From a virus, in IMG/VR virus record IMGVR_UViG_3300044946_000078, positions 1-64,000 of that record: a stretch of 64,000 nucleotides of DNA; one strand, 5' to 3'. The notes beneath the pieces are model-generated. The model ran no database searches, was not told where the DNA came from, and saw only the letters and a program-made list of their open reading frames with translations. The number at the start of each line of letters is the position of its first letter. Within the stretch, counting starts at the first letter, position 1. The position numbers were made by a program, and so were the translations under genes. This document shows positions 10,077-50,781 of this stretch, piece after piece.

Positions 10077-10084
10077 GCCGGTTC

Positions 10085-23541: not shown

Positions 23542-26500
23542 TTAATTTATTTGAGTAAATCTACAATAACTACCTGCCGAATATACCGTTGTAGTCCCGT
23601 TCCCATTTGCGGCAAATCCAACGGTGGCGCTCCCTGATCCTGTACAGGTAATAGTTCCTTGAATATTAACCATTCCTATTCCCAATAAGGCAATAAAGGA
23701 TGCGCTTGTCGGTGACCCTATAGCTGCTTGAATATTTGTGAAAGTAGAAGAAGTTGTAGTCTCTCCAAAAGCCGTCACCTGCCCCGTAGCTGATCCTGAA
23801 GCTGCTATTACATTGACCGACGCAGCTCCTAATGCAGAAGAATTCCCTACCACTAAACGACAATCTACTGCGTAAGTGTGCCCACTTACCATATTAAAGC
23901 TAAAGATAGGCGACGAAGAAGTTGTTGCATTAGTCGCATTGGATGTTAATGCCTCTAAAGTGTCCAATTGAACCAATTTTGTTTTAACAACACCGGCTTC
24001 CACAACTAGCGCGCTATCTGAAGAAGGAGTGGTGGCTGATGGAAGCCCCCACAAAGTAGCCCCTGTTCTTATTAAAGCTGATCCATTAACATCTAATGTC
24101 TTTGATGGTGAATTAGTGTTTATCCCGATGCGGCCCGTGGTGCTTTGGGTGCTATCCCCTGTTAAATCGATTCCTGTACCATACAATACATTCCCAATTG
24201 TCAATGTATTTGAGCTATTATAAGTAGGCGGTTGAATGCTGTTCCCTATGATGATGTTTCCGTTGCCTGTATTCCAGGTATATCCTGCTCGATAACCTAA
24301 AGCAATATTTGTATTGCCATACATTGAACTTCCTGATTGAGTACCGAACAGAGTTAGATTTGATCCTATCGAATTCAATCCACTTTGTTTCCCAAATTCA
24401 GCATTATTAACGCCACTTACTCCAAGTTCACCGGCCGCCTCACCAAAGTATGAATTTGAATTCCCTCCTACATTATTTAATCCAGTAGCCCACCCAAACA
24501 TACTATTAGCTGTTGCTGAATTATTGGATTGATAACCTGCATCATAACCAAACAAAAGGCTTGTAGATGAATTAGATCCTCGAATGGAAGCGGTAATAGA
24601 TCCTGTCGTATCATATACCGTGAATGCAGGTGTCCACTGATTGTAATTTGGATATGGATAAATGTTAACCATATTTGCCTGGAACTGACCATTTACATTT
24701 TCATCTCCACCATGCCTTACGCCCATAAGCGCTAATGCTCCTTCTGCCCACACACGATGCCCTTGGTCGTTAGGGTGTACATTATATGTTGACGGAGAAA
24801 ATAAATCATTTGCGGCTCCGTTCCAAAGCATATTTTGATAATTGTTGACGAATATGCAATTATTGGCTAAAGCTGTGGCTTGCAAAGCTGCGGCAAATAA
24901 GGGCTGCTCTGTTGTATTATAACTAGACGTATCAACCCAATACCCAACGGACATCAATACAATCCTATTAGTTGGCCATCCGTGCGCTATAGCGGTATCA
25001 ATTCCGGCAACAATTGCGGACTGATACTGCGCTGTGGTAATAGTCTTAGAAACAAGATCATTAGTGCCATATTCCAATATTAACCATTGGGTTGAACTTG
25101 TATGCCCTGGAATTATATAAGTTGAATTATTCAAAAGCCTATCGACTAAAGACGAATCACCGACAGACTGACGATATGCTGTTGTTCCTCCAATTCCCCT
25201 ATTGACAACTGAACAGTTTAGGGCAGCACCCAATCTATTGGCATATCTAAACCACGTTTGTGATGCCCCAGTGCCGGCTGTAATACTATTCCCAACCACA
25301 TAGATGGTATTGCTACCGGCTAATTGAGCGCTTGTGTCGCCCGATTGAATAAATGTATTACTTCTTAATGTTCCCCTTACATCAGCCTTAAATCCAGAAT
25401 CTGCCGATGCAGAAGTAAAGCCATTTCCAAAAACTTCATTTCCTGTTAAACTGAATAATTGATTATAAGGCGTAAAGGTGGTCCCAATAAAAGACCCCTC
25501 GACCAATGAATTGGCAATAGAAGAAATAGAGCCTAAAAATCCACTCCCCGTACCGCCCAAGGAAGAATTAGACGCGCTCAAAACATCGGTAGCTAAATAA
25601 TTGGCACCATTATTTGTAATGGTAATAGAAGACACATCTGTCCCGGAAACTACGATTGTTGCCTGTGCGCCTGTCCCACTTCCTCCTGTCAAAGGAACGC
25701 TTGTATATGTCCCATTTACATATCCAGATCCGGCTGCGGAAATTGCTACCTTATTTATTGATCCGTATACATTATTATAAAGCCCGCTCACTTTTATATT
25801 TCCTGTGCTAATTTGTGCAGCTCCGAAAATGGTACCATTGATAACAGCCCGTGTCGATACTGTCAAAGTATCTGAAGTTATTTGTCCTTTAACTGCCAAT
25901 GGAACAAATCCTGGCAATTTACCTATGCCAATATTGTTACTTGTCGTATCTCCATTTAAAACAACATTCCCTAATGTTAAAGATTTGGCAGAATTCGCTA
26001 GATTATGTAAATAAAGTGTATCATTATTTAAAATAAAAACGCCGCTTTCATTGGGAAAGGTATCTACCTGGGGAGCTGCTGCTGAAATAAGCGCCTTACT
26101 CAATCTAATAATTGATCCGTTGCTTCCTTTAATATTTATTCCTGAGCTATCGTACATTTCATTACCAGAAGCCGGTATTGGTGTTAAAGTAGATTGTGGC
26201 AAGAACATATACGCCCCTCTGGTAAGCACATTACCATTTACGTCTAGTATCTGCTGTGGGTTGTATGTTCCTATGCCATTATTAATTCCGGGTTGCGTTA
26301 TCAATCCAATGGCACTATCTCCTCCAAAAGATCGTAGTAATAAAGATGCATTTACCAATTTACCAGACCCAGACACCCTTGATGCACCTGCCACAAATTG
26401 GGCTTCAGTGACTATAAAATCTTGATTAGTCCCGACATTATAGGTTGCCCCACTGTCGCTGGCGTATATCCCTGCATTATTTGCATTGGTTATGTTTGCA

Positions 26501-29343
26501 TTGGTGTTCCCAATTTGTAAAGGGCCATTGGGAGCAGCGCCAGTACCAATAGCCAAACCATTTCCATTTGTCCCATTTACTGCTGTAAATCTACCAACTT
26601 CAGAAGTAAAATGAACTTGTGTCCCAGCTGATATTTCATGCCCAGCATTTATAATCACACTTCCAGAAGTTCCAGAACCTGTCGCTAATCCAGGATTGAT
26701 GATTAAGTTTGATCCTGAAATATTAGACCCCAGCGCTATACTCGGGCTTACAGTAAAAGAGTGTGGCTGTGTGGCCTCAAATCCAGAACCACCATACAGG
26801 TTGGCAACATAATTTGTACTATCGCCTCCGACAACCATCGCGTGACCCAACGTTATTGTCGCATTATCGGATTGATCTCCACTTTGAGCGCCTAGAAAAA
26901 TATTGTTTGTTGAAGTATTATTTAATCCCGCCAACGGACCTATAGCAATAGATTTTGTAAAATTTGCATTTTCAGCGGCGGTTGATCCTATTATCACATC
27001 ATAATTGCCGGATACAAGTTCATATCCTGCAAAAGCTCCTACAACAGTATTGTTGCCGCCACTGGTTATATTTGCCAAAGAATTTGGACCCAACGTCACA
27101 TCATAATCAGCAGTGGTATTTACAGAACCAGAACCTCCGCCAACAAAAAGATTAAATGAAGGCCCCGATCCTCTAATTTGCAACACGGAAGTTGATGACG
27201 TGTCATTAATATTAAGATAGGACGGATTACCTCCGTATACATTTCGGTTTCCCCATAATGTCAATGTATTTCCTTCCAGGCCGGCTCTAGCTGTCAAAAA
27301 GCCACCATGTTTATCCGGCAGCGTAACTAAAAATGCCTCTGATTGAATCGTTTGCCCCCATGCGTTCTTATGAATATTATCATAAAATAGATCATTGTAC
27401 CCATTGGCCAGTTCCGCCGAATCGATATTTATGTAATAGCACCCTTTGGCTAATGCAATTGTCTGGATAGCAGCTGACCAAATAGGTGGATTTGCCGATG
27501 ATGCGTCCCGTCTTATTGGAACACCAGCGCATATTATTTTATTATACGGATATCCTCTATCTAAATGAAGAGAATCCATATAGGAAGAATAAGTAGCCTG
27601 AAACGTACTTAAACTCACTCCTGCACCCGGATCATTTTGGCCATAAAATATAACGATGTATCTATAATTCGTACTGTAATTGGGGACTTCATAAAACCTA
27701 TTGACGAAAGATGAATCTCCCGCACTGACCATGCAAAAGGTAGTACCAGGAATCCCCCTATTTACCTCGCGGGAATTTATGGCATTGGCTGTTTTAGAAG
27801 AGACGCCATCCGTGCGTGACGTAACGCCTACCCATGCCACCTGACTATCTCCCCACCACCACATTGAGTCGCTACCTAGTTGTGGAATTGTATCTCCCAC
27901 CATTGTCCAATTTAAAGGATAATCACTTTGATCAAATATCGGCAACGAGGAAGTATTTCCCCTAGTGAGAACACCTTGCAAATTACCAGCCGCACTGCTT
28001 GTATCAAATTGATATTGCGTTACATAGTCAATAGGTTTGGACGGAAGGCTATCTCCGTGCAGCATTAATGAATCACCGCCGCCAGGCACTTTTAATTCTG
28101 GTAAATAAATTATTCCATTAGCCAAAGATGTAGCAGCGGGATTTGCTTCTAAATAAAAGTTATATCCTAATTGATTTGATAATTGAATGCTTCCTGAATT
28201 TATGACTGAATATGAAAAATTTGAATTGCCCCCCTCGACAGAAATTCCCGATGGAATAACTTGTACATATGGATTCTGATTTGATTCAGAACCAATTGTT
28301 AGAGTGGGATGTCTTACGCCAGTATGTATTAAGTCAGTAAATATGAAATTGGTATCATTTGCTAAATATTTCCCAGCGCTATCATAAGGAACTCCATTTG
28401 GGTATAGAAGGTCATTGCCAAGGAAATTTGATCTTAGGGTATAGGATGAAGTCCCGTCGTAATTTAATAGTTGTACAAGCGACGCCGTATCGTTCCTATA
28501 CGGATTTCTTATCTGAATGGTATCGAAAATGGATCGCCCACCAGCAACTTGAAATAAAGCCTGTGGAGATGGCGTTCCTATTCCTACGCTATCATTTCCT
28601 CCTGTAACTGGATTGGAAGTTGGGGGGGTATATTGGGGGGAAAGATAGTTTGCATTCGCTCCCGATCCTCTAACAAATGAAACTGCCCCTGTAGAAGCAA
28701 AAGTGATATTAGGGTATGTCCCCGATAATGAAATATTTGCTCCGGCAATAGGATTGAATTGTGCCGGTATTGTTGGTTGATTGGTTAGATTGTTATAGTT
28801 GAGATAATCGGCCGGTGTCAGTCCATTGAATTTATTTACTGTTACGTTATTGATAGGTCCTGAAATATCACCACCTAAAGTAAGCGCCAATGAAAGATTG
28901 GGCGTAGTTGTGGGACTTGTTATTGTCCAAACTTGACCGGCATTATTTGTCGCTGTGATGTTGCTTACTGTACCGGTAGAAGTTACTGGGTCTATATTTA
29001 TTAAAACAAGATTCGAGTCAGCTACACCATTACGGAACATGTATTCAAAGGCTTGGCCGCCTATAAAAAATCCATTTGATTGGAGGGAGCCAGTATTGAC
29101 CCAATACGGAACATTACCAACCCTTGTTTGCGCAACGGGAAAATAGGTTAGAAGTTCAGTAGTAGATTGAAATTGACGGTATACTCCTCGACTTGCATCC
29201 CACATATAAGTCCTCATATCAGAAGGGAATGCTCCTTGGGGGGCCATTGGCTTGTTGAAAGTTTGGCCGATAGTGGGGTTGTATTGGGCCTTAGATTCTC
29301 CAACAATAAAAACAAGAAATATGAATATTATAATTTTCTTCAT
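23542..29343 (-). CDS. tail fibre/spike with two SGNH esterase domains
   Basis: GDS..RGIPG..GQND..DNIH and GNS..RGIGG..GTND..NVH; Gly/Asn-rich beta-roll repeats. Confidence 0.8.
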   Translation of the reverse strand: MKKIIIFIFLVFIVGESKAQYNPTIGQTFNKPMAPQGAFPSDMRTYMWDASRGVYRQFQSTTELLTYFPVAQTRVGNVPYWVNTGSLQSNGFFIGGQAFEYMFRNGVADSNLVLINIDPVTSTGTVSNITATNNAGQVWTITSPTTTPNLSLALTLGGDISGPINNVTVNKFNGLTPADYLNYNNLTNQPTIPAQFNPIAGANISLSGTYPNITFASTGAVSFVRGSGANANYLSPQYTPPTSNPVTGGNDSVGIGTPSPQALFQVAGGRSIFDTIQIRNPYRNDTASLVQLLNYDGTSSYTLRSNFLGNDLLYPNGVPYDSAGKYLANDTNFIFTDLIHTGVRHPTLTIGSESNQNPYVQVIPSGISVEGGNSNFSYSVINSGSIQLSNQLGYNFYLEANPAATSLANGIIYLPELKVPGGGDSLMLHGDSLPSKPIDYVTQYQFDTSSAAGNLQGVLTRGNTSSLPIFDQSDYPLNWTMVGDTIPQLGSDSMWWWGDSQVAWVGVTSRTDGVSSKTANAINSREVNRGIPGTTFCMVSAGDSSFVNRFYEVPNYSTNYRYIVIFYGQNDPGAGVSLSTFQATYSSYMDSLHLDRGYPYNKIICAGVPIRRDASSANPPIWSAAIQTIALAKGCYYINIDSAELANGYNDLFYDNIHKNAWGQTIQSEAFLVTLPDKHGGFLTARAGLEGNTLTLWGNRNVYGGNPSYLNINDTSSTSVLQIRGSGPSFNLFVGGGSGSVNTTADYDVTLGPNSLANITSGGNNTVVGAFAGYELVSGNYDVIIGSTAAENANFTKSIAIGPLAGLNNTSTNNIFLGAQSGDQSDNATITLGHAMVVGGDSTNYVANLYGGSGFEATQPHSFTVSPSIALGSNISGSNLIINPGLATGSGTSGSVIINAGHEISAGTQVHFTSEVGRFTAVNGTNGNGLAIGTGAAPNGPLQIGNTNANITNANNAGIYASDSGATYNVGTNQDFIVTEAQFVAGASRVSGSGKLVNASLLLRSFGGDSAIGLITQPGINNGIGTYNPQQILDVNGNVLTRGAYMFLPQSTLTPIPASGNEMYDSSGINIKGSNGSIIRLSKALISAAAPQVDTFPNESGVFILNNDTLYLHNLANSAKSLTLGNVVLNGDTTSNNIGIGKLPGFVPLAVKGQITSDTLTVSTRAVINGTIFGAAQISTGNIKVSGLYNNVYGSINKVAISAAGSGYVNGTYTSVPLTGGSGTGAQATIVVSGTDVSSITITNNGANYLATDVLSASNSSLGGTGSGFLGSISSIANSLVEGSFIGTTFTPYNQLFSLTGNEVFGNGFTSASADSGFKADVRGTLRSNTFIQSGDTSAQLAGSNTIYVVGNSITAGTGASQTWFRYANRLGAALNCSVVNRGIGGTTAYRQSVGDSSLVDRLLNNSTYIIPGHTSSTQWLILEYGTNDLVSKTITTAQYQSAIVAGIDTAIAHGWPTNRIVLMSVGYWVDTSSYNTTEQPLFAAALQATALANNCIFVNNYQNMLWNGAANDLFSPSTYNVHPNDQGHRVWAEGALALMGVRHGGDENVNGQFQANMVNIYPYPNYNQWTPAFTVYDTTGSITASIRGSNSSTSLLFGYDAGYQSNNSATANSMFGWATGLNNVGGNSNSYFGEAAGELGVSGVNNAEFGKQSGLNSIGSNLTLFGTQSGSSMYGNTNIALGYRAGYTWNTGNGNIIIGNSIQPPTYNSSNTLTIGNVLYGTGIDLTGDSTQSTTGRIGINTNSPSKTLDVNGSALIRTGATLWGLPSATTPSSDSALVVEAGVVKTKLVQLDTLEALTSNATNATTSSSPIFSFNMVSGHTYAVDCRLVVGNSSALGAASVNVIAASGSATGQVTAFGETTTSSTFTNIQAAIGSPTSASFIALLGIGMVNIQGTITCTGSGSATVGFAANGNGTTTVYSAGSYCRFTQIN

Positions 29344-30803: not shown

Positions 30804-32015
30804 TTAAGCTAAATTTTGATCAGTGTTATTTTCTCGATAGGCTATTTTATTCATTATATCCAAAAGGCCCTTATCATCGAAGTTTGAAAAAACACGCTTG
30901 CCAGTAAAAGAATTCTTTATATCCGGGTCAGCTTTTATCTTTTGCAATAATTCTGGCGTTAAATCTTGGGTTCTTGCATCGTAGATCCCCTTTTTATGAG
31001 CCATATATCTTAACGCTTGTATGTCGCTCATGTTTTCGCTAGGGGCTATGTCATGCGTCGCGGCATTATGAGCTAGTTCGTCAGAAATAGATTGTCCTTG
31101 TTTTTCTGCGTATTGGGGCCAATATTTTTTGTCATCGCTCGTTGGCTGCGTTTCGCGTTGGAAAATATAGTCTTGCTCTACTGGGTTAAGCTGTGTTGAT
31201 TTGTATTCACCTGAATTTTGACCATGGGCTAGTTCGTGAACATCCGACTCCCCTCGTCCAGCCTTCAGCTCTTTGAGTTGATCTGGATTGACATTCATGC
31301 TATTGTCGGCGGAATCATAAACCGTTGCGCCATTTCTGACCACTTGGCCGTCTACGAGTTTCGTCCCCGATGTTTCGGAGAACTTGACATCTTTCAGTTG
31401 ATTATCCCTAGTTTGTTGTACATACGCTGGATCTTTCCAGAAGTTATTGAGTCTTTCCTTATATTTTGGCGATTCTATGTACGACTGTAGCCATTCTTGG
31501 GCATCTTTGTCCGTTGGATTAATTGCCGCTCCCGGTTTCTCTACCGGTTCTGCTGTGGGCTTATCGGGAGGGGTCAGATAATTTTTGGCATAGCTTTCAA
31601 TATCTGTTCCATGGTCTTGTATTTGTCTTCCTTTTGAATCTATTATCTTAGCTGTAGGGTAGAACAGGCTTGCCGTTTTTGAGTCAATCACCCCATTAAC
31701 TTCAGGTAATGGCTGCTTCATGAAAGCCGGATTCAATTTATTTCTAAGCGCCGACAATTGATCAGATGATAGGTCGCCAATTAAATCCCCATTTCTTATA
31801 TTATCATGGTCTTGTTGAACGGACGCAACATGATCAGGCGTTAGTTTAAAATCTGGATTTTGATTGGCATAATGAGCCATATAAGCATGGCCTAGTTCTG
31901 GATCAGCATCCAGATTGGCCTTTTGACTCCCCAAATAGGAAAGAAACCCATTCCATTGGCCTCTCTCATCTGGCGTAAGTGGCTTATAGTATCCTATTTT
32001 ATTATCAGTCGGCAT
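30804..32015 (-). CDS. putative ejection protein with zincin-like metallopeptidase motif
   Basis: DVHELAHG (HExxH) with a downstream E (SENMSD). Confidence 0.6.
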   Translation of the reverse strand: MPTDNKIGYYKPLTPDERGQWNGFLSYLGSQKANLDADPELGHAYMAHYANQNPDFKLTPDHVASVQQDHDNIRNGDLIGDLSSDQLSALRNKLNPAFMKQPLPEVNGVIDSKTASLFYPTAKIIDSKGRQIQDHGTDIESYAKNYLTPPDKPTAEPVEKPGAAINPTDKDAQEWLQSYIESPKYKERLNNFWKDPAYVQQTRDNQLKDVKFSETSGTKLVDGQVVRNGATVYDSADNSMNVNPDQLKELKAGRGESDVHELAHGQNSGEYKSTQLNPVEQDYIFQRETQPTSDDKKYWPQYAEKQGQSISDELAHNAATHDIAPSENMSDIQALRYMAHKKGIYDARTQDLTPELLQKIKADPDIKNSFTGKRVFSNFDDKGLLDIMNKIAYRENNTDQNLA

Positions 32016-35000
32016 TACCTTTCTTCTTTTTCAGGAACGTTTTTATTGAGCCATGGCAAGCCAGATTCTATTGGCTGACCCATGTTTTCAGGAGCATATT
32101 TTGTACCACCACTTTGCCATTGTGATATTTGTTGGAGCAACACAGGGTCAACTGTATTTTTAGCCAAATCGTTGAAATATTGGCCACGTCCTTTTTCGGT
32201 AGAAAGATTGCCAATGTTTGACGGGAATAGCGGCGCTTCTTCAGCGAGTCCCATCATAGAGGCTATGATGGCATTCGTCATATGTGGATCATCGTCTGTA
32301 TCCACCGATTTATCCATTAACTTCCTCGCAGTAGCGCCCAATTGCATAGTCTGAAATACCGGCGATTCTAAAAGCCAGCGAGGCACATTTACGCCCATTA
32401 CATTGGCCTCTCCCCAATTTGGTTCACCATCTTCCTTCTTTTCGCCCTTTTGATAAAAGCCACCGAAATGTTCGGGATTTAACGCTCCAATAGTCAATAA
32501 TGCTGCCCCAAATGACCCTTTCTTTAAGTTTCTCATTATCCTATTGGCCATTTCGGGCTCCATATTGTCAAACGATTTTTTCATTAATTGGCTAGTAATA
32601 TCCCATCCAGCCCTAAGAAGACCGCCGCCGGCCAATGTCCCCGTTTCTCCAATAATATTAGTAGGCACTTTAACAAAAGGAATAAACCATTTCAAGCCAG
32701 TTGCTACGGCCTTGCCTCCGGGCTTATCACTTTTTTCTAGGCTCCTGATAGTTGCCTTATAGGCATCTGTTACTAAGTTATCGCTCATGAATATAGCCCT
32801 ATCTGCATCTTTAACTGCTTGAATAGCCATTTTTTCTATTAGAACAGGATCTTTTACATTGACCCCATTTTTCATGTTATTAAATGTCTGATTCATAAAA
32901 GACTTCTCAAATATTGCTCTTCTAATGGGCGTTTTTATTGTTTTATGAATCCGACCAAAAAAGTTAATTCCTTCATCAGGCATAGGTGATTTGCCTCCTA
33001 AAACATCTATTTCTGTTTGATGGCCCGTCTTTTTATCCCAAACATCACCAATATCTTTTATACCCTTTATAATGCCGTCAGTAAATATTTTAGCTTCAGC
33101 AGCAATATGTAAATTACCTTCGGAGGTTGCTTGCTTTGCTATTTTTGAAATGCCGGGGATTTTAGAGAGAAGCCCTCCAATAGCATCTTCCACTGGCGTC
33201 TGGACAAGTCTAGTCACGCCAGCCGCTCCCAACTTAGCCAATGTAGTTATTCCAGATAATTTTGCCTCTCTTTCATAATTCAAGAAAATGTCTCCTGCTT
33301 TTTCGGCCCATGCTTTATTGACTGGCGCGGCAATCTGTGACACCTTTTGATTAAAATTATTTTGAGCCTTCCTTAAATTGGTTAAGGCCGTTCTGATTGC
33401 CCCAGCTTGATTTGATTTTTGAGAAGTAAATCCAGCCGTAGCCATTTTTTGCAATTTATCTTCCTGGTCATTTATTTCATTAAATGAATTTTTTACATCA
33501 TTCATTTCTTCTATAGTCAATTTAGCCCCATCTCCTTTAGCTGCTCTCATTCTATTGACCATGTTTTCCAAAGAATATTGATTTCTGGCGATTATTTGTC
33601 GAGTAGCTAACCCACGGGCATTTTCTGTACCAGCTTTTTTACCAGCATCATATACATCTTGAAGCTGTGCTAAAAGCGCTTGCTGACGCACATGGAGATC
33701 ATCAATAGAATTTTGATCTTTAGCTTCTTGTGCCTTAATTAGTCCTTCTTGGGTTTGCCCTAGTTGAGATTCAAGGCCAATTTGATGTTTAAGGACCACT
33801 GCATTTTCAACATCTGACCAAGGACGCGGTTTCTTTAAAGTAGATGATATGATGGTTGTGGCACTCATTTTATTATTATCAATAGCATCTTGGGCTTCTT
33901 GCCATATTTCTCCAAATTCTTTTCTGGCTGTTTTTTCTGCCTCCGGTAATCCAAATTGGGCCCGCTTAACTCCTGTTACCTTATTCATCAAGGATGTTAA
34001 TTGAGGATCTATTTTTTCTCCTGATCCTTCTTTTTTTTCATTGCTACTGTTTTCGGTAAATTCTTGGGGTCCTTCGTTTTGTCCGCCCACTCCTGGGCGA
34101 AGGGCTTCTTCGTTGCGAACGCCCATTTCATTTGTTGTTTGCTCTGGAATGGCATTGGGATTTTGTTTTAAGAGTTTTGGTTCATTATCCTCGATAAATA
34201 ACTTTGCTCCATCCTCATCATTAATCGCATGAGCCTTATTTTTTAACTCTTCGATAGTCTGTTTCATTCGTACCATATCGGGATCATTCGGATCTGCTCC
34301 GCCTTCGATAAGACGGTCGTAGCTCCCCTGTACCGCGTCGGCAGCCCAATTAGGATGCTCGTTGTCATTTATTTCTATTGCGCTAGGGGGCGCTTTTTCA
34401 CCAGATACTACCTCGTGAATTAAATTAGAGGTGTGAATTGTTCGAGGCAAGTCAGATGAGATTATTTTTGGTATTTGCCTGCCATTCAATTTATTTAAAA
34501 GTTCCTCACCGGCGGCTTTTGCTTCGTTGATCCCATTTTCGGTAAGTTGGGCATCGTTGCTTCTGAAGAATCCTGCGGCGTTGTCGTCCGTTTCCCCGTG
34601 CCTGACGACATGAATTTGTTCATCAGGGCTAGTTGATTGTTCTTGGGCAGCTTTAGAAAGTCCGCCATTTTGAACTGCGTCCGAATTTTCGGGATCATTG
34701 AGGAACTCTTCAAAAAGGGATTTAGTCTCATTGTTGGCTGTTATATGTTGTAAAGTAAGTTGATACGCTAGGTCATCAGCGGCATCCCCTTTAAATGTTC
34801 TTTTTTGTCCATCCGGGGTTTCCAGATTAACCGAAACGATATTGCCGTCTTTGTCTCTATTGATAGCCTGTATGGGATCATCAAAAGTGTTTACATATTT
34901 TTGACCCCTCACTATTATATTGCCATCATTATCAATTTTAGCCGTAGGCTCTTGTGTTTGTATATTAAAGCTGGTTACCGGTTGATCGGATAGCTTGTCT

Positions 35001-37762
35001 ACATTGCCTAATTCATATTCCCTATTTGTTCCGTCAATTTTAGCAATAATCGTTTGACCATCTTGTTCAATGGTTGCTTTCTGCCCCTTGTACATTACCG
35101 GTTTGCCAATTACATCGCTCATTTTAGCAATATCTGAAGATGATGCCTTTTTATTAAAGGACTCAACAGCTCCCGGTTCGATTGATTGATCGTTATATTT
35201 ATCTGCAAATTCTTTTTCCTGCTCTGGCGTTAAATTATCTATATCAGGTCGCCCCATATCGTCCCATACTTTATAGGCCTTTAGGACGCTGCTATGGGTA
35301 ACTACCGTTGTGTTGTTGGGGTCTTCATCCAATGACTTTTTGAATGCCGGGATAACCCTTCCTAAAAAATCTCTAAACGTTTCACCAGTTTCACCAATCG
35401 GCTTATCCCAAGATGATATATCCTTTGCTATTTGATCTTTTGCTATTGGTGTTTCTGGGGTCTTCCCATCTGCATAATCTCCGTAATCAATAGTTCTAAG
35501 GGATTTATCCGGCTGGATAGTATTAGAAATAGGTTCGTGGGTATTTGATTCATTTTCATCTCCTGGTTCAATATGATTAATTCTTGCTGTATATTCTGGC
35601 ATCGATTCGATAGGATGCATCTCTTGAGCAATATCAATAAGTCCTTTCCCAAAGATATTTTCAGCCCCTTTCGAACGATTTGGATCGTAGGACTGTTCCG
35701 CAACCTCTCTTAACAATTGGGGCAGTTGTTCGGGTGTTGCATTTTCAAATATTGACTTACTATATCCTTTTATTTCTCCTTTGGCTATTTCGGCTTGCGC
35801 TTTCCCTACAAGATCATCGGACGATGGTTTTGAACTGAGCGATTTGATCTGCTCGTTAAGACCACTTAAATGTTCTTCCATTTGTGGCCTATAAGCATCA
35901 TCTGCATTTTCCAACGCGGCCTTTATATCATTTCTTTGTTTAAGGAGGTCTAATACTTTGGGTACATTTTGTGACGGTATATCGGTAGGCAACTTTCCCA
36001 ATGTTTCTTTTAAGTCTAAAAAGTCTTTAGCGTGTGCTTCGGCTTCATTGGGCAATAAGATACCATCCTTAACTAGGGTTGCCAGTGATTTATTTATTTC
36101 ATCTTGTGGGGCGGTAGCTATCAGGGCTTTTATATTGTTTGCCGATTTTTTACTGAACATTTCGGGAGACTTCAACAATGTTCCCAATATTCCAGTGAAA
36201 GCGGCTGCCCCCTCTCCGGCTTCTGGAACATCTTCAAATATTGGCCTGTTATTGGATAAGTTCGTTAGAACTTGAGTCCCTGATCCAATAAGCCCTTGCA
36301 TTCCTGCCTCTTTACCTATCTTACCAAGGCTTTGAACTACTGAATTTTTAGCAGCGGGAGTTAATTGAAGACCGCCCTTAATCAGGGGGTTTTCAAATGA
36401 GGGCGCACCTTCTGCACCAAATTTAGCTCCGGCATAGGTCATTAGCGCACCCTGCGCACCCTGAAGGGCACTTTCCCTTGTTCCCCTATTCTGAGCTATT
36501 TCCAAAGCTTCCTGCGGATCTTTCCCTTCATCTCTTAATTGACGATAATTATTTGTTACAGATTGGGCATATGCTCTTTGCATTATTTCTGGTGTAGTAA
36601 CTGCCGTTGCTGCGACTGGTCCTAACTCAGGACTACCGAAGAGTGAGCCACCAATACCACCAACAATACCAGTCGTTAATCCTTCAGCGGTTAATATGCC
36701 TTGCCCCCCCACAAAAGCGCCAGGAACACCACCAAAGCCTTTTGGAACCGGGATAGGTTCATCTGGATCATGCCTATGATAATCAGTTTCGAGCTTATTT
36801 ATGATGTCATTATCATTAGAATTAGCCAGAAAGTCGTAGTCATCAAGGTCCTTATTTCTTTTAGCGAAGGCCGTTCCCATTGCTTCAAAGAAGTTGGTTT
36901 GCGGCCGCGTTACTTGTCCGGTGGACGCATCGTATCCAAGATCACCAGTCCCTATCTTTTCGGCGTTTGAAAGTATTTTTGATGCGTTATATGACCGATT
37001 CCCAGAGGATGCTAAATAGGCGCTTCTGTTTACCTGATTTGCTATCTCTGGGTGATCATTAGCTATCTGTTTAATGAATTGTCCTGTAGTATTCCCCGTT
37101 GCGTCATTAGCTAAGTTTATTTTAGCCGCCGCCGCGTATCCGGTTTCTGGATCTAGCGCTTGATCATGGATATTTTTTATTTGCTCCTTTAGTTTCTGGA
37201 ACTTTTCGCTATTAGATGAAATATCAATGGGGTTAAGATTTGCACCTTTAATGGCGGCTTCTACTTGTTTTTGAACAAAATCAGATGCCATTTTTGTGGC
37301 TGCCGATTTAGAATACTTATCAATATTAGCCGCCGTATTCTTTTGTTCTTGATCGACTATTGCGGCATGTGCCTCGGGAGCAGATCTACCTATATTTGGT
37401 GATGGTATTGGAGCCCCGGGTATTTGTGGTTGCTGGGGTTCTGGTTGATACTGTAACGATTGTCCCGTTGCTGGCTGAAAGTTTGCGGGATTTACTTGGT
37501 TGGTAGCCTGTTTACTTGCTGCTTTTTGATAAAAATCGTCAAATCCTATTGTAAAATTCCCCTTTATGTATTTGCCATTTTCTCCATATGCTTGATCCAT
37601 TCCATTATAGACCTTTTGGGCATAGGAACTATCACTCATTTTTTGAGCGAATTGATCATACGGCAAATTAAAATTGCCTTTAGCATAAGCCCCATTATCT
37701 CCGTATGCTTGTTGCATACCTTGATAAACCTTTTGCAAATATGGATTATCTCCCTGCGGCAT
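32015..37762 (-). CDS. large ejection/cargo protein with circularly permuted histidine phosphatase domain
   Basis: 1915 aa downstream of the tail genes; VVTH at aa ~823 precedes RHGET at aa ~1054. Confidence 0.75.
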   Translation of the reverse strand: MPQGDNPYLQKVYQGMQQAYGDNGAYAKGNFNLPYDQFAQKMSDSSYAQKVYNGMDQAYGENGKYIKGNFTIGFDDFYQKAASKQATNQVNPANFQPATGQSLQYQPEPQQPQIPGAPIPSPNIGRSAPEAHAAIVDQEQKNTAANIDKYSKSAATKMASDFVQKQVEAAIKGANLNPIDISSNSEKFQKLKEQIKNIHDQALDPETGYAAAAKINLANDATGNTTGQFIKQIANDHPEIANQVNRSAYLASSGNRSYNASKILSNAEKIGTGDLGYDASTGQVTRPQTNFFEAMGTAFAKRNKDLDDYDFLANSNDNDIINKLETDYHRHDPDEPIPVPKGFGGVPGAFVGGQGILTAEGLTTGIVGGIGGSLFGSPELGPVAATAVTTPEIMQRAYAQSVTNNYRQLRDEGKDPQEALEIAQNRGTRESALQGAQGALMTYAGAKFGAEGAPSFENPLIKGGLQLTPAAKNSVVQSLGKIGKEAGMQGLIGSGTQVLTNLSNNRPIFEDVPEAGEGAAAFTGILGTLLKSPEMFSKKSANNIKALIATAPQDEINKSLATLVKDGILLPNEAEAHAKDFLDLKETLGKLPTDIPSQNVPKVLDLLKQRNDIKAALENADDAYRPQMEEHLSGLNEQIKSLSSKPSSDDLVGKAQAEIAKGEIKGYSKSIFENATPEQLPQLLREVAEQSYDPNRSKGAENIFGKGLIDIAQEMHPIESMPEYTARINHIEPGDENESNTHEPISNTIQPDKSLRTIDYGDYADGKTPETPIAKDQIAKDISSWDKPIGETGETFRDFLGRVIPAFKKSLDEDPNNTTVVTHSSVLKAYKVWDDMGRPDIDNLTPEQEKEFADKYNDQSIEPGAVESFNKKASSSDIAKMSDVIGKPVMYKGQKATIEQDGQTIIAKIDGTNREYELGNVDKLSDQPVTSFNIQTQEPTAKIDNDGNIIVRGQKYVNTFDDPIQAINRDKDGNIVSVNLETPDGQKRTFKGDAADDLAYQLTLQHITANNETKSLFEEFLNDPENSDAVQNGGLSKAAQEQSTSPDEQIHVVRHGETDDNAAGFFRSNDAQLTENGINEAKAAGEELLNKLNGRQIPKIISSDLPRTIHTSNLIHEVVSGEKAPPSAIEINDNEHPNWAADAVQGSYDRLIEGGADPNDPDMVRMKQTIEELKNKAHAINDEDGAKLFIEDNEPKLLKQNPNAIPEQTTNEMGVRNEEALRPGVGGQNEGPQEFTENSSNEKKEGSGEKIDPQLTSLMNKVTGVKRAQFGLPEAEKTARKEFGEIWQEAQDAIDNNKMSATTIISSTLKKPRPWSDVENAVVLKHQIGLESQLGQTQEGLIKAQEAKDQNSIDDLHVRQQALLAQLQDVYDAGKKAGTENARGLATRQIIARNQYSLENMVNRMRAAKGDGAKLTIEEMNDVKNSFNEINDQEDKLQKMATAGFTSQKSNQAGAIRTALTNLRKAQNNFNQKVSQIAAPVNKAWAEKAGDIFLNYEREAKLSGITTLAKLGAAGVTRLVQTPVEDAIGGLLSKIPGISKIAKQATSEGNLHIAAEAKIFTDGIIKGIKDIGDVWDKKTGHQTEIDVLGGKSPMPDEGINFFGRIHKTIKTPIRRAIFEKSFMNQTFNNMKNGVNVKDPVLIEKMAIQAVKDADRAIFMSDNLVTDAYKATIRSLEKSDKPGGKAVATGLKWFIPFVKVPTNIIGETGTLAGGGLLRAGWDITSQLMKKSFDNMEPEMANRIMRNLKKGSFGAALLTIGALNPEHFGGFYQKGEKKEDGEPNWGEANVMGVNVPRWLLESPVFQTMQLGATARKLMDKSVDTDDDPHMTNAIIASMMGLAEEAPLFPSNIGNLSTEKGRGQYFNDLAKNTVDPVLLQQISQWQSGGTKYAPENMGQPIESGLPWLNKNVPEKEER

Positions 37763-40322: not shown

Positions 40323-43300
40323 TTATGAAGCATTTAATGGCGAAGTGATGTATTTAAGCTTTACCTCCGAAATCCACACAAGGCCTGTCGGATTGGTCAC
40401 TTGTAATTGAATTCCCAAATAAGATCCTTTCATAGTATATCCATTTATCCACCCTCCCGGAGAATTAATATCCCTCATAAAACTGGTTTCAAATAGCCCT
40501 TCTAAGGTAGCAAAATTAGCTGGTATTAGCTTACTTTGTTGCCGAGTAGTTCCGTATGTATATTGATTCGTATAAATGAGCGGCGCTTCCCAAATCTGAG
40601 ACGCCAATTCGGCAATAGAAATGAAAGTTTTCTTTTCTATTAAATTCTGGTTGAATACTGTTTTTACATAACAGGGATATTGCACGCCAAAATAATTACA
40701 ATAAGGTGCTGTATTAGTATTCGGATTATTATCGTGAAAGTATAATTGCCCATTGAGGAATGTATAAAAATCTTCTTCAGCCGAAATTATCCATTCGGCT
40801 TCATTAAAGCTATATTTTGATCCATAAGCGTTGTTCTTTTCATTAAAGGCAATAGCGTAGTTTTGTATCGTTTGTGCCCCATTGGTACCAGCCTGTAAAA
40901 TTCCTATCCATTCTTCCTCAAAGAAATTATAGCATCCAATAATCCTAGCATTAGATCCGTCAGCTTTTGTCCAATTGCTAAGATATGGCGTAATGAGAGA
41001 CCGGATATAATATTGTCCTTTATACAATTCACTGACCGGAATTAGTCCATCTTGACTAAGACGAACCATATAGCCTCTAACCGGATCAAAAAAGTAATCC
41101 TGAATTTTGCCGGATACAAGGCTTTCGGGATGGTTACCTAGTCCAAATTCGCCTTCATAATATGGGGTATTCCCTATGGTAATGATGGCATTCGTCGTGG
41201 TAAGGACATTTTCTCCTGATGCTTGATTTATGAAGCTATTATAAACGCCTTTCTCAAAGCATCCTCTTGCTTGGAATCCACGTAATATCCTATCTCTTGA
41301 TTTTAAGCGTAATAGTGGCCCCTTTGCTCGATCTACTTCATCTTGGTTCTGATCATAGAACCTATTTAATTGGTTTATTTCAGTCCCAAATTGATCCGAC
41401 AGGCTCCATCTTAAAAGTGTTTCAAATGTATTTTGTTGAGCATTATCATCATAGGGCAATGGACGTAGATTGGCATTGTAGACTATGTTATAGGCGTCGT
41501 CAAAACTAGAATCCATAACGGGAATAGTTATGTAATTAAGGACATCCAGCCTTAAAGTAAAACCGCCTACTTGGCCAGTAAAGTTAGTGTCAATCCCTGG
41601 CAAAAATCCATAGAATAACCAAGCTTGCGTATTAGCAGGAATAGTTATAATTACATCTACCACTACTTCATATCCCTGAACGGTTGCCTCTTCTGTAAGA
41701 TTGAAATTTTGGAATAAATATTGGAATTGAGTAGGCGGTATATTAGCAGCATTCATAAAATATAGTGCCCCAAAAACAGTACAGCTTGTTGTGGCATTTA
41801 GGGGAATAGTTCCTCTAAGACGTATATTTTGCGGGCTACTTGTTTCATTCCAGTAAAGTGCCCTATCTGCATTTGTAGGAGAATATTGGGGATAATTGCC
41901 AGGCCCAAACCCTACTCCATTTTGTAATTGCTGATTTATTTGGTATGGTGCTGATCCAGCAGTAGGATTAACGACTCCTTGTGGATTCTCTGTTGCCTGA
42001 GTCGTAAATGTTTGAGAATGCTGGGAAAAGGCACATTGTTGTGCATTTATATAATAGCTTAACCCTGTAGGCACTTGTCTTTCTCTATAGAAAAAATCCC
42101 CATCCGACATTCTTATTATTGCCGGTGTTGTATAATCGATTGATTGAGATTGATCTGATCCTATATGAAATGCCGTATTGGTTCCTGGATTGCCTATCGC
42201 ATATTGTCTCCCAAAATCATAAAAAACTTCCTGATCTTCTGTGACTCGCTTTGCGTAATTATATATTAATATTTTATATCGCTGAAAATTGTCCGATTGA
42301 AGAGGCGTCAATCCACTTGCAAATCCAAAATTGAATGATGCACTAATATCAGTAGTTGGGTATATTATCTTGATAAAAGACCCCTCTTGAATAATCCCAT
42401 TTAATACCGGATCTGTTTCAACTGAAACTATTTGATAATCATTCGCAGGACTCATCTGAACAGAGCTGCCATTCAAGGGATAGTTTATTAAAAATCTGAT
42501 TCTATCGCCTTGTGAAAATGTATATCCGACAACTGGTGTGCCTCCTGGATTTGCAGTCGTTACATTTTCATTGTATAATTCCATATTTGAATATCCAATG
42601 TAAGCATATTGGTAACCAGTTGCTAGGTCAGTATTGACAAAAGTCTGGTTACATATCCACATTAAATATTTATCATAGGTTAGATTTAACGATCTTACAA
42701 TTGAATAGTAATAGGCATAAAGAGGTGGCTGATTATTGATAGTAGCTATTATCTGTGGTGTAAGATTACCAGATAAATCATTTAAAGTGGTGATCCCATT
42801 ATTGGAAGGGAATTGAGCCCCTATTGTTCTACCTTTTTGATCATAATAGCATACAGCCAATTGATATGCGCATCTGTCTACAAAAGAATATACGGATTCG
42901 GTATATGGAGAACTTCCTCCCGTTGTTGAGTTAGTTGTTTGGGCATAGTACAATGATACATTAGTCAATGATACGGTGAATGAATTTGCCCCAACTGAAC
43001 CAACTAATGTAAATCCTTTAACCTCGGCGGCCGCTAAAATACCATCAAGAATTGTGGCAATCGAGGTATTTGATCCGCTTGAATATTGGAATGAATTATT
43101 TGTTCCAGCAACACCATAGGTCACTGTATAGTTTAGCCCGTTGCCGGGGATATTTCCCGCTCCGTCATTTGTCCCAAATAAATATATTGTTATGTTATCG
43201 CCAACATTACCATAGGAATCAAGTCCAGATTGAGACGCAAAAAACAAAAGGCCATTTATATCATTAACAGGAGGTATATAATTAAGATTGGATGTTAAGG

Positions 43301-44342
43301 TCATATTTATCGGAGTCTGATTGTATCCCTCCGTAATATTCCCCATTATAATGGTATTACCATTTAACAATTCTAGGCATTGGGCCGCAATGGGACAGAA
43401 ATCAAAAAGTTGAACGATTTGGGCCGGATCGGCAGATACATATACGCCATCATTATAAAAGTCAAATTGATAAATGCTATTATCTGGTATAGCCAACATT
43501 GCTTTATCGAACGACTCAACCAAAAGCCAATTGCTATTCTCAACATTATCTGTTGCTTGCTGCACCCATAATTCAATTTTTATTACATCTTCATCTCCTG
43601 TTGAAAAAAAAGTGTAAATAAAATTATTGCTTGTCTGATCGCTATATATATCTTGGTTGAATGTTTCATTTGGTAGTGACACTCTACTACCGACACTATA
43701 TACAGGTTTCATGTAATCTCTGTATACGTATCTGGTCCTAAACTTGAACAAGGCATTTTGCAGATTATTCAAATTAGTAGATGGATCGTTGCCATAACAA
43801 CATCTGACGGGACACCTGGGCGGCGCTTTTGCCAAATCGATGAATGACCGCTTAGTTACTGCATAAGGAGTATTTAAGAAGAAAAGTATATTGATGCAAG
43901 TTGGTCTCCCTTGACTATCCAGGTAAACGAGTAAATCCCCTTGAATATCTTCTTGGTATACGATAACTATAGAAAGAATTGGATTATTAAGTGTAAACCC
44001 AAGTATATCCCCTTGGGTAGCCGAACCATTTATTAAAAGGGTTTGAATTGTTTTAGGAACGGTATTGTATATGAATATGGCATGATTGCCGTTACTATTC
44101 CAGTTGAACCAAATTATCCTTTGGCTTACTTGGTCATAAAATGCACCTATACATTCATTATTCCCAGCCGGAAGTGCAGAATTGGATATTAATGAATTCC
44201 CTATTATATTTTGAACTCGCCTATTATTAGCTTCACCCCTATACACTACATTTAAAGCGTCCAATACTGAAAAAAAGTCTACTTCCGTCTCGGATAAGTC
44301 GGTATCTAAAATAGCATTGAATCTTTTTATCTGTACTGGCAT
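40323..44342 (-). CDS. tail muzzle/nozzle (stabilisation) protein
   Basis: 1339 aa; DALN, YQLAVCYYDQKGR, GEFGLGNHPES and LSQDGLIPVS motifs typical of crAss-like / P22 gp10-type nozzles. Confidence 0.8.
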   Translation of the reverse strand: MPVQIKRFNAILDTDLSETEVDFFSVLDALNVVYRGEANNRRVQNIIGNSLISNSALPAGNNECIGAFYDQVSQRIIWFNWNSNGNHAIFIYNTVPKTIQTLLINGSATQGDILGFTLNNPILSIVIVYQEDIQGDLLVYLDSQGRPTCINILFFLNTPYAVTKRSFIDLAKAPPRCPVRCCYGNDPSTNLNNLQNALFKFRTRYVYRDYMKPVYSVGSRVSLPNETFNQDIYSDQTSNNFIYTFFSTGDEDVIKIELWVQQATDNVENSNWLLVESFDKAMLAIPDNSIYQFDFYNDGVYVSADPAQIVQLFDFCPIAAQCLELLNGNTIIMGNITEGYNQTPINMTLTSNLNYIPPVNDINGLLFFASQSGLDSYGNVGDNITIYLFGTNDGAGNIPGNGLNYTVTYGVAGTNNSFQYSSGSNTSIATILDGILAAAEVKGFTLVGSVGANSFTVSLTNVSLYYAQTTNSTTGGSSPYTESVYSFVDRCAYQLAVCYYDQKGRTIGAQFPSNNGITTLNDLSGNLTPQIIATINNQPPLYAYYYSIVRSLNLTYDKYLMWICNQTFVNTDLATGYQYAYIGYSNMELYNENVTTANPGGTPVVGYTFSQGDRIRFLINYPLNGSSVQMSPANDYQIVSVETDPVLNGIIQEGSFIKIIYPTTDISASFNFGFASGLTPLQSDNFQRYKILIYNYAKRVTEDQEVFYDFGRQYAIGNPGTNTAFHIGSDQSQSIDYTTPAIIRMSDGDFFYRERQVPTGLSYYINAQQCAFSQHSQTFTTQATENPQGVVNPTAGSAPYQINQQLQNGVGFGPGNYPQYSPTNADRALYWNETSSPQNIRLRGTIPLNATTSCTVFGALYFMNAANIPPTQFQYLFQNFNLTEEATVQGYEVVVDVIITIPANTQAWLFYGFLPGIDTNFTGQVGGFTLRLDVLNYITIPVMDSSFDDAYNIVYNANLRPLPYDDNAQQNTFETLLRWSLSDQFGTEINQLNRFYDQNQDEVDRAKGPLLRLKSRDRILRGFQARGCFEKGVYNSFINQASGENVLTTTNAIITIGNTPYYEGEFGLGNHPESLVSGKIQDYFFDPVRGYMVRLSQDGLIPVSELYKGQYYIRSLITPYLSNWTKADGSNARIIGCYNFFEEEWIGILQAGTNGAQTIQNYAIAFNEKNNAYGSKYSFNEAEWIISAEEDFYTFLNGQLYFHDNNPNTNTAPYCNYFGVQYPCYVKTVFNQNLIEKKTFISIAELASQIWEAPLIYTNQYTYGTTRQQSKLIPANFATLEGLFETSFMRDINSPGGWINGYTMKGSYLGIQLQVTNPTGLVWISEVKLKYITSPLNAS

Positions 44343-50418: not shown

Positions 50419-50781
50419 CTAACAAATTTTTGATAACGTTACTAATAGTTTGGTTACAGTATTAGGGGTACCGGCATTGTTGGTTATCTGCAAGTATTGC
50501 CCTATGTATTGAAACCGATAAAGTCCTATGGTTGCTGTTGACACGGATTGGGATCCTGTCGCCAAATTAGTCCCTTGGACGGGCTCAAAATTTATTGCGG
50601 TTTGTGGTGAATTATCCGGCAACTCCCCCTGAATGGCTCCCCCATCATTGGAATGATTGAAATAAAATGTACCGGTCATCCCTATAATATGGACAATTAT
50701 AGTTTCATACCCAGCCGTATCTAGGTTGACATATCCCTTTTCGTTGAATTGGACGGTATAGTCAAATGGACGCGTTATCAT
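50419..50781 (-). CDS. small beta-rich virion protein
   Basis: Position and composition. Confidence 0.5.
   Translation of the reverse strand: MITRPFDYTVQFNEKGYVNLDTAGYETIIVHIIGMTGTFYFNHSNDGGAIQGELPDNSPQTAINFEPVQGTNLATGSQSVSTATIGLYRFQYIGQYLQITNNAGTPNTVTKLLVTLSKIC

Follow-up and report, generated by a model that had tools for sequence, protein, structure and literature searches.

Within the window, a 64,000-nucleotide stretch of an IMG/VR virus record (IMGVR_UViG_3300044946_000078), an uncultivated soil phage encodes P0001, a giant open reading frame of 1915 amino acids whose reading frame is uninterrupted. A single enzymatic domain can be recognised in P0001, along with one mobile module and conserved regions towards both termini; residues ~200-870 and ~1500-1900 are common to 20-35 giant homologs, and the middle of the protein is variable. 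The preliminary description of this DNA had located in that protein a histidine phosphatase with its two halves in reversed order. The features that bear on this reading are as follows.

32015..37762, minus strand: P0001, a modular, polyvalent-type protein within the phage structural module
35147..35530, minus strand: phosphatase C-half, aa 745-872 (PF00300 profile positions 69-154; pLDDT >90)
34634..35146, minus strand: nested insert, aa 873-1043, an autonomous module, beta-rich with a helical tail, flanked by flexible linkers
34397..34633, minus strand: phosphatase N-half, aa 1044-1122 (PF00300 profile positions 1-66; aligned to dPGM residues 6-70; pLDDT >90)
35492..35497, minus strand: Arg756-Thr757, with Thr757 (35492-35494) at the canonical proton-donor Glu position
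35294..35296, minus strand: His823, the second active-site His, in T-H-S-S-V
34595..34603, minus strand: Arg1054-His1055-Gly1056, with His1055 as the predicted phospho-accepting nucleophile, at the end of strand 1
34442..34444, minus strand: Arg1107, the second phosphate-pocket Arg, equivalent by alignment to dPGM Arg62 (codon verified)
34420-34679 (X2 record 3) and 34341-34677 (X3 record 8): contigs bridging the insert/N-half junction
40323..44342, minus strand: a 1339-aa virion protein upstream of P0001, candidate crAss-type muzzle

The Pfam family PF00300 (His_Phos_1) matched P0001 in two stretches, with a combined E-value of 3.8e-21 and 76.1 bits against a gathering cutoff of 21.7. When the stretches were scanned separately, aa 747-830 corresponded to profile positions 69-154 (E 6.6e-9) and aa 1050-1118 to positions 1-66 (E 1.4e-13), which is the pair of partial, reversed matches that the preliminary description had expected from such a scan. 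No Pfam family matched the 179 aa between them. The two matches are complementary, so that the profile is cut cleanly between its positions 66 and 69. The C-half runs from the strand before an R-T motif (canonically L-R-E) through GET and Arg802 to T-H-S-S-V-L-K, which contains His823, and then through helices to a last strand, V-E-S-F. The N-half contains beta1 with R-H-G, Asn1061, Arg1067, helix 1, beta2, S-D-L-P-R (Arg1107), and helix 2. The canonical element order, with RHG first and the second His last, is thus absent from P0001, which is homologous to these enzymes but topologically permuted. The residue numbers given earlier for RHG (1054-1056) and His823 agree with the verified codons, and the full Arg/His/Arg/His set reported there is present as Arg1054, His1055, Arg1107, and His823.

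A 396-aa AlphaFold2 model gave a mean pLDDT of 82.4 and a pTM of 0.70, with both halves above 90. When the halves were modeled as two chains, the ipSAE was 0.92, against 0.01 for the best of three controls; 58 of 80 solved complexes and 2 of 110 mismatched pairs attain the mark for this score, counts that are rough given our own alignment. At least 95% of the contacts agreed among the two-chain runs, with a partner pLDDT of at least 84. The predicted interface includes Arg756/Thr757, His823, Arg1054/His1055, Asn1061, and Arg1067, and strand 1 (model residues 316-319) is paired with the strand at model residues 132-135. The halves are therefore predicted to form one sheet with the catalytic residues at their interface, which answers the question on a single active site that the proposed model check had posed, and the successful docking of the two chains may reflect their likeness to solved histidine phosphatases. 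A VIA-align search of 48,161 PDB chains returned histidine phosphatases at all of the top 15 positions, the best being 2qni (Z 6.7, rmsd 3.7, 124 aligned), 4ij5 (Z 6.6, rmsd 4.2, 127 aligned), 9mmh (Z 6.5, rmsd 4.1, 127 aligned), and 1h2e (Z 6.3, rmsd 4.0, 124 aligned). Each of these four chains was aligned at residues ~65-205 with the first half of the model, and the C-half was matched to the C-terminal two thirds of PhoE, iPSP1, HFP, and CobC. Since only one half can be superposed by a sequential aligner, the Z-scores are middling, reaching 6.7 at most. Likewise, a Foldseek search of the model against PDB and BFVD found no match at E<=0.001, as expected for a permuted, two-domain query.

The reversed order is shared widely. 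A phmmer search with a compact member against 1.84 billion representatives found 179 proteins at E<=1e-10; among the matches listed, almost every one was a single collinear stretch. Among 252 related proteins gathered, 163 carry the C-half followed by the N-half and 6 the canonical order. The linker between the halves is 15-48 aa long in 161 of these 163 proteins, and extends to 190 aa in P0001 and 204 aa in P0002. The permuted-domain sequences are only 31-40% identical across members. Most members form part of proteins 1300-5600 aa long that are encoded in structural modules; about 25 shorter proteins (450 aa or less) also carry the domain, some of them essentially stand-alone (190-220 aa). 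In the compact and stand-alone members, the best NCBIfam match, CobC TIGR03162, is likewise a reversed pair, and for two members of 4000 aa (P0157 and P0196) the sole PHROGs match was a phosphatase family, phrog_12933. An alignment-based scan of viral contigs identified 25 loci, and a search of the same kind of contigs with a single window fragment found no related locus. By tblastn with P0001 and the compact domain, the permuted domain was absent from 50,697 GenBank phage records, which gave one weak match to the N-half only. A scan of GTDB genome contigs with narrow patterns gave no confirmed relative. By sequence, the permuted histidine phosphatases make up a large module family that occurs in giant proteins of phages. 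The preliminary description had not recognized the topology from described proteins, and the searchable literature indeed yielded no description of this family.

The active-site residues are retained throughout the family. His1055 is present in all 163 permuted members, Arg1054 in 162, Gly1056 in 161, and Arg1107 in 159, where the remaining members have gaps at the Arg1107 position; Arg1054, Asn1061, Arg1067, and Arg1107 are each kept in at least 157. The position of His823 is occupied by His in 150 members, by Ser in 6, and by Asn in 6. This residue is lost in five of the seven closest relatives of P0001 (P0002-P0006), and retained in P0001 itself. The refuting condition named earlier, a lack of conservation of the catalytic residues in homologs, is thus not borne out, and by these alignments the active site of the permuted family is under selection. 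The replacement of Glu by Thr at the canonical proton-donor position, which had been described for this protein, is supported by the alignment of Thr757 with the Glu of L-N-E-R in S. pombe PGM. Its scope had to be corrected, as the replacement is a family-wide trait: the position is Thr in 139 of the 163 members, Ala in 15, and Glu in none. Two viral relatives with the canonical order (L021 and L023) also have Thr there.

The segment between the halves of P0001 is about 170 aa long and is located in the hairpin connecting the former C-terminus with the former N-terminus. An alignment that mixed phosphatase-bearing and insert-only homologs (A2) misaligned the insert and was dropped; with alignment A3, AlphaFold2 modeled it at a pLDDT of 84.6 as a beta-rich module with a helical tail, in line with the beta-rich insert noted earlier. 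The VIA-align matches of this model, to Tudor/SH3-like and PH-like barrels, were all weak (Z of 4.6 or less), with no fold assigned. As modeled, the insert consists of two small beta-barrel-like subdomains and helices. It had no match in Pfam or NCBIfam, including the LPD families from PMC5512222, and no usable match in ESM Atlas. The module recurs, 31-57% identical, in about 80 giant proteins of phages in which the phosphatase is missing, and was found at the junction hairpin in P0001 and P0002 only (2 of 163). The sister of P0002 is P0006, which has no insert, and a clade of P0001 and P0002 was rejected (AU p 5.8e-9); a single origin of both inserts was not rejected by the insert tree (p 0.75). 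The history of the insert may thus comprise one gain with precise losses, recombination, or two independent gains. The "permuted, split" topology originally proposed needs to be divided accordingly. The permutation of a branch-1 fold stood, and the split is a separate event, later than the permutation, in which a different mobile module was nested in the junction hairpin of a domain that is compact in 161 of 163 proteins.

P0001 was compared with solved branch-1 phosphatases, namely PhoE (1H2E), iPSP1 (4IJ5), Aquifex HFP (9MMH), Atu0299 (2QNI), and dPGM (1E58), and further with CobC alpha-ribazole phosphatase (3HJG, 6E4B). In common with these enzymes, it has RHG, two pocket Arg, the Asn, the second His, GE(S/T), and Arg802, as well as a predicted alpha/beta/alpha fold and its PF00300 score of 76 bits. 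In contrast to them, its chain is cut between helix 2 and strand 3 and a hairpin joins the old termini, a 170-aa domain is nested in that hairpin, Thr replaces Glu at the proton-donor position, and the permuted family adds conserved Arg1067, Arg756, Ser824/Ser825, and Lys828. P0001 scored far under all cutoffs of the NCBIfam equivalogs; CobC TIGR03162 reached 69-79 bits, in two reversed stretches, against a cutoff of 162.9. The minimal phosphohistidine phosphatase SixA belongs to the same superfamily, has a small core fold, and weakly matches the N-half by its NCBIfam model, but its order is canonical and the match amounts to 25-35 bits against a cutoff of 74.5. SixA, too, is not known to have an obvious Glu proton donor.

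The genomic context of P0001 is that of virion genes. PHROGs matches nearby include terminase, portal, and virion proteins, and the region is syntenic with another locus, L002. The 1339-aa protein encoded upstream matched phrog_14478, "virion structural protein" (E 3.2e-44), and gave a match to Pfam crAss_MUZ_C just below the cutoff (E 2.1e-5, 25.3 bits, cutoff 27). In PhicrAss001, cargo genes come after the muzzle gene; the large cargo proteins gp45-gp50, encoded downstream of it, are found in capsid and tail and are ejected with partial unfolding (Bayfield et al., 2023, PMC10172136). P0001 may resemble this crassvirus cargo, in that it follows a protein with a near-threshold muzzle match. 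It differs in that P0001, the portal, and the 1339-aa protein have no sequence match to solved crassvirus proteins; phmmer searches of the three against PDB showed no similarity except to phosphoglycerate mutases. A second likeness is to the polyvalent proteins, for which injection is predicted (Iyer, Burroughs, Anand, de Souza, and Aravind, 2017, PMC5512222). P0001 shares with them a giant, multidomain architecture and a structural-gene context, and its homologs and module-sharing relatives (among them P0094, P0096, P0098, and P0072) carry LPD38, Kinase-PolyVal, ddrB-ParB, and ART-PolyVal domains. Relatives join the modules of P0001 with kinase, ART, and ParB domains, and the modules are shuffled between proteins. 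Unlike the polyvalent proteins, P0001 itself has no Pfam polyvalent-specific (LPD or -PolyVal) domain at E<=10. The words phosphatase, phosphoglycerate, and permut- are absent from PMC5512222, so the module is not described there under those names. From gene position and relatives, we infer that P0001 is a virion protein of the modular, polyvalent type, encoded where a crAss-like structural module has its cargo. Given this placement, the phosphatase domain probably enters the host by ejection along with the DNA.

We consider it probable that aa 745-872 and 1044-1122 constitute one permuted branch-1 histidine phosphatase, with a different module nested in it, on a carrier of the polyvalent cargo type. 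Its chain runs from canonical strand 3 to the last strand, through the hairpin into strand 1 with RHG, and on to the end of helix 2, and the second mobile module, of ~170 aa, has been inserted into the junction hairpin in P0001 and one known relative. As RHG sits at the opposite end of strand 1, the insertion should spare the active site and leave it intact. The central sheet with one antiparallel strand and the mechanism are known for canonical histidine phosphatases (PMC12051542). By analogy, His1055 would attack a phosphoryl group held by Arg1054, Arg1107, His823, and Asn1061 together with the family-specific Arg1067 and Arg756, and the resulting phospho-histidine intermediate would then be hydrolysed. 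Across the family, Thr or Ala stands in place of the general-acid Glu. This suggests either that the substrate offers a good leaving group, as a phosphoramidate, an acyl phosphate, or a bond of the pyrophosphate type would, or that turnover is slow or altered.

That the two stretches are instead decayed remnants of separate phosphatase domains, or were brought together in a misassembled or chimeric contig, and form no single domain, is a reading close to refuted. The halves do lie 171 aa apart in the window, and sequential structure searches match one half. Against this, the two profile matches are exactly complementary, the predicted interface is confident, the frame is open throughout, and the same order occurs in 163 independent proteins, nearly all with a short linker. 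P0002, at 49% identity, is nested in the same way, and contigs of ~90-95% identity from two other studies, a soil run of 2017 and a mine run of 2024, span the junction between insert and N-half; no contig in X2 or X3 bridged the C-half/insert junction (35146/35147) by 31 letters. An assembly artefact, which had been named as a possible cause of the order, is thereby countered. A different view, which we regard as rather unlikely, accepts the single domain as a pseudoenzyme, a phosphate- or anion-binding or docking module for a phosphorylated ligand or a nucleic-acid end, with no turnover. The general-acid Glu is missing in every member, and the second His is replaced in 12 of the 163, including most of the nearest relatives of P0001, so that some members may be weak enzymes or non-enzymes. 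However, the retention of the nucleophile and of the four pocket residues at 31-40% identity is typical of catalysis rather than of mere binding. Moreover, proton donors differ among histidine phosphatase families (PMC12051542), and the canonical-order viral relatives carry Thr as well.

If the domain is active, it could serve the phage itself, in assembly or on phage nucleic acid or nucleotides after ordinary expression. The proteins of 450 aa or less are in keeping with this, as they need not be virion proteins; most members, however, are parts of very large structural-module proteins and co-occur with polyvalent-protein domains predicted to be injected, and we judge this alternative quite improbable. 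The permuted branch-1 phosphatase that we favor might also be given a more specific role, which we put forward only tentatively, as a widespread phage-injected effector, with the loss of Glu fitting a good leaving group and the nested module acting as a targeting or regulatory switch. Its candidate substrates would be a host phospho-His/phospho-Asp relay, an acyl phosphate, or a pyrophosphate-type defence or stress nucleotide signal.

Few enzyme folds have been studied as thoroughly as the histidine phosphatase (PGM-like) fold, and a large natural family in which the chain order is rewired and the canonical proton donor is missing makes a useful case for enzyme evolution and for annotation, the latter because Pfam and NCBIfam models see two partial matches in the wrong order. 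The nested domain, located exactly at the permutation junction, is a rare natural experiment that marks the hairpin as a permissive site, and the effect of insertion can be addressed in matched pairs, P0001 with the clade of P0003-P0008 and P0002 with P0006. If the effector reading is true, P0001 would be a natural domain-insertion switch. The family occurs in probably ejected giant phage proteins, sometimes adjoining polyvalent-type kinase domains, and this probable ejection and neighborhood make the phosphatase a candidate early takeover or counter-defence activity.

The giant protein of the window, P0001, is encoded by one uninterrupted reading frame and matches the His_Phos_1 family of Pfam (PF00300) in two stretches, with an E-value of 3.8e-21 and 76.1 bits against a cutoff of 21.7. 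When the stretches were scanned separately, the normally C-terminal part of the phosphatase (C-half) preceded the normally N-terminal part (N-half), and the 179 aa between the two matches of P0001 had no Pfam match.

32015-37762, minus strand: P0001, uninterrupted ORF of 1915 aa (ORF call)
aa 747-830 of P0001, minus strand: C-half, His_Phos_1 profile positions 69-154, E 6.6e-9
aa 1050-1118 of P0001, minus strand: N-half, His_Phos_1 profile positions 1-66, E 1.4e-13

The two stretches cover complementary parts of the profile, which meet at positions 66 and 69; judged from sequence, the phosphatase core in P0001 is complete and only reordered. The preliminary description had correctly numbered the RHG motif (aa 1054-1056) and the second histidine (His823); Thr757 stands at the canonical Glu position. 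In a phmmer comparison with PDB sequences, the N-half aligned to residues 6-70 of dPGM, with Arg1054/His1055 equivalent to Arg10/His11, Asn1061 to Asn17 and Arg1107 to Arg62. In this comparison Thr757 falls on the Glu within L-N-E-R of S. pombe PGM.

With aa 740-1125 as the query, a word-indexed search retrieved 120 giant proteins of 1200-3300 aa, which fell into two populations by BLAST of three segments: about 40 in which the C-half is directly followed by the N-half, and about 80 with the middle segment alone. A compact member from IMG/VR locus L002 (P0121, 222 aa) was used as a phmmer query against 1.84 billion cluster representatives, yielding 731 matches at E<=1e-3, 179 at E<=1e-10 and 63 at E<=1e-30. 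Almost every one of the 150 matches listed is a single collinear stretch spanning the whole permuted domain. The 252 gathered proteins were sorted by order using HMMs of the two halves, which placed the C-half before the N-half in 163 and found the canonical order in six. The halves of the permuted proteins lie 15-48 aa apart, with the exceptions of P0001 (190 aa) and its relative P0002 (204 aa), and the family ranges from stand-alone proteins of about 190-220 aa up to 5655 aa. The split, reversed-order histidine phosphatase proposed for this giant protein, together with the two partial matches expected of a Pfam scan, was thus recovered. The order is not an assembly artefact: it is shared by 163 proteins, and two other sequencing runs, one of soil (2017) and one of a mine (2024), contain short contigs with about 90-95% identity to the window that span the junction between the intervening segment and the N-half.

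34420-34679: junction-bridging contig, sequencing run X2, record 3
34341-34677: junction-bridging contig, sequencing run X3, record 8

Two further sequences have peculiarities of their own. In P0205 (1161 aa) the N-half HMM matched four times consecutively and the C-half HMM not once; half-domains with the RHG motif may be arrayed in tandem in this protein, or it may represent an intermediate of duplication that bears on the origin of the permutation. The permuted phosphatase at 9941-10600 of a 46-kb viral contig (L013, IMGVR_UViG_2651869516_000092) has two in-frame TGA codons that coincide exactly with conserved Trp sites, one corresponding to Trp833; the domain is intact under table 4, and this phage probably reads TGA as Trp.

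The Arg/His/Arg/His set of the preliminary description (Arg1054, His1055, Arg1107 and His823) is conserved in the homologs.

Residue conservation among the 163 permuted domains
His1055: 163
Arg1054: 162
Gly1056: 161
Arg802: 160
Arg1107: 159
Arg1067: 158
Asn1061: 157
His823: 150 (Ser in 6, Asn in 6)

The proton-donor position is Thr in 139 of these 163 domains, Ala in 15 and Glu in none. The closest canonical-order relatives of the family (L021-L026, on viral contigs) carry Thr in L021 and L023, Pro in L022, and Glu in L025/L026, there within a 1140-aa protein. Since L021 and L023 also have Thr, the loss of the Glu may predate the permutation. Within the eight-member clade of P0001, there were two losses of the second His (replaced by Asn in P0002 and P0006 and by Ser in P0003-P0005), and P0001 retains it. 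The conservation pattern would fit a site active in phosphoryl transfer whose general acid is unusual or missing; a substrate with a good leaving group would suit such a site.

The AlphaFold2 model of aa 735-1130, built from a 40-row alignment, had a mean pLDDT of 82.4 and a pTM of 0.70, with both halves above 90 and the segment between them low. Foldseek returned no match for this model at E<=0.001 in the PDB or BFVD, as expected because the order is permuted. In an exhaustive VIA-align search, the top 15 of 48,161 chains were all histidine phosphatases, each pairing the first part of the model with chain residues of about 65-205; the tool itself warns that Z values of this size are middling, but the list is uniform and consistent with what the sequence shows.

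2qni: Z 6.7, rmsd 3.7, 124 aligned
4ij5: Z 6.6, rmsd 4.2, 127 aligned
9mmh: Z 6.5, rmsd 4.1, 127 aligned
1h2e: Z 6.3, rmsd 4.0, 124 aligned

The packing of the halves was assessed by folding them as two chains (residues 6-140 and 306-392 of the alignment for this model). They docked with an ipSAE of 0.92, compared with 0.01 for the best of three controls; among solved complexes 58 of 80 attain this ipSAE mark, as do 2 of 110 mismatched pairs, counts that apply approximately here because our own alignment was used. At least 95% of contacts are shared between the runs, and the partner pLDDT is at least 84. The docking may reflect the model's recall of likeness, because the halves belong to a fold with many solved relatives. 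In the two-chain model the T-V-V-T-H strand packs on strands 1 and 2, the last C-half strand (V-E-S-F) pairs with strand 1, and the predicted interface includes Arg756/Thr757, His823, Arg1054/His1055, Asn1061 and Arg1067, so that the halves form one unit in prediction with catalytic residues at the interface. One strand of the canonical sheet is antiparallel (PMC12051542). Members of the permuted family have a short hairpin between the last C-half strand and strand 1, which may explain the tolerance of rewiring if this last strand corresponds to the antiparallel one.

Between Lys872 and Thr1044 lies a separate module of 171 aa, 23-53% identical to the same module in 43 aligned proteins, all but one without the phosphatase. 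Modeled alone by AlphaFold2 (pLDDT 84.6), it has strands at model residues 19-122 followed by helices at 123-162; it had no match in Pfam, NCBIfam or the ESM Atlas, and its VIA-align matches were weak (Z <=4.6). It is placed in the turn that joins V-E-S-F to strand 1, flanked by linkers modeled with low confidence, and should leave the pocket untouched because RHG lies at the far end of strand 1. Among the 163 permuted proteins, P0001 and P0002 alone have it nested at this place. The phosphatase tree pairs P0002 with P0006, which has no insert, as its sister (support 100/99) and rejects a clade of P0001 with P0002 (AU p 5.8e-9); a common origin of both inserts is compatible with the insert tree (p 0.75). 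One gain followed by precise losses, exchange by recombination, and two independent gains are all possible histories, and each implies a junction that tolerates the presence or absence of a whole domain.

The IMG/VR virus contig of the source record measures 75.6 kb and is estimated to be 67% complete, and related sequence was found in soil and mine metagenomes. The P0001 gene lies within a structural module, the gene order of which is the same in L002.

53332-55410, minus strand: terminase
50778-53252, minus strand: portal
structural module, minus strand: several genes matching 'virion structural protein' PHROGs
40323-44342, minus strand: 1339-aa virion protein, crAss_MUZ_C (PF25729) near threshold, 25.3 bits against a cutoff of 27
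upstream of the 1915-aa gene, minus strand: three small genes
after the 1915-aa gene, minus strand: tail-like genes

The sub-cutoff crAss_MUZ_C match hints at a crAss-type tail in this soil phage. Downstream, a 1933-aa protein (23542-29343, minus strand) contains a GDSL/SGNH lipase-acylhydrolase at aa 1349-1531 (PF13472, E 5e-30) and weakly matches a baseplate-wedge PHROG; this protein is a probable tail fibre or spike whose esterase would act on a host surface polysaccharide. P0001 itself begins with two copies of a Q/N/Y/G-rich repeat of about 40 aa (aa 1-60; 37580-37762, minus strand; consensus K-V-Y-x-G-M-x-Q-A-Y-G-x-N-G-x-Y-x-K-G-N-F) and has a Gly-rich, weakly hydrophobic stretch at aa 349-375. 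Its regions of aa ~200-870 and ~1500-1900 are common to 20-35 homologs, and the middle is variable. The phosphatase or the insert module is combined in relatives with LPD38, Kinase-PolyVal, ddrB-ParB and ART-PolyVal. In seven proteins (P0098, P0166, P0168, P0171, P0192, P0201 and P0211) an N-terminal permuted phosphatase at aa ~50-235 is followed 60-600 aa later by one or two Kinase-PolyVal-like domains, a recurrent architecture that could represent a phosphatase-kinase pairing.

The relatives thus have the architecture of polyvalent proteins, for which injection together with the DNA is predicted (PMC5512222). The position of the P0001 gene also resembles that of crassvirus cargo genes; the crassvirus cargo proteins are stored in capsid and tail and ejected partly unfolded (PMC10172136). 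By these analogies P0001 is a probable virion cargo or polyvalent protein. The permuted domain is homologous to branch-1 histidine phosphatases but lacks two features that define them, the canonical order of elements and the Glu donor; we class it as a new topological variant and not as an ordinary branch-1 member. The permuted form has no model in Pfam or NCBIfam, and the family was not found in GenBank phage records at tblastn sensitivity. The polyvalent-protein paper (PMC5512222) lacks the words phosphatase, phosphoglycerate and permut-, and full-text searches found no relevant literature combining circular permutation with histidine phosphatase or phosphoglycerate mutase, or histidine phosphatase with polyvalent proteins or with phage and virion. 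Within the literature that could be searched, we provisionally regard the family as undescribed.

These results confirm a real, conserved, circularly permuted histidine phosphatase module; the preliminary interpretation is supported in part, and delivery with the virion is probable. The P0001 copy is interrupted by a nested mobile domain, and the nested insertion, seen in this copy and in P0002 (2 of 163), is a rare addition within the permuted family.
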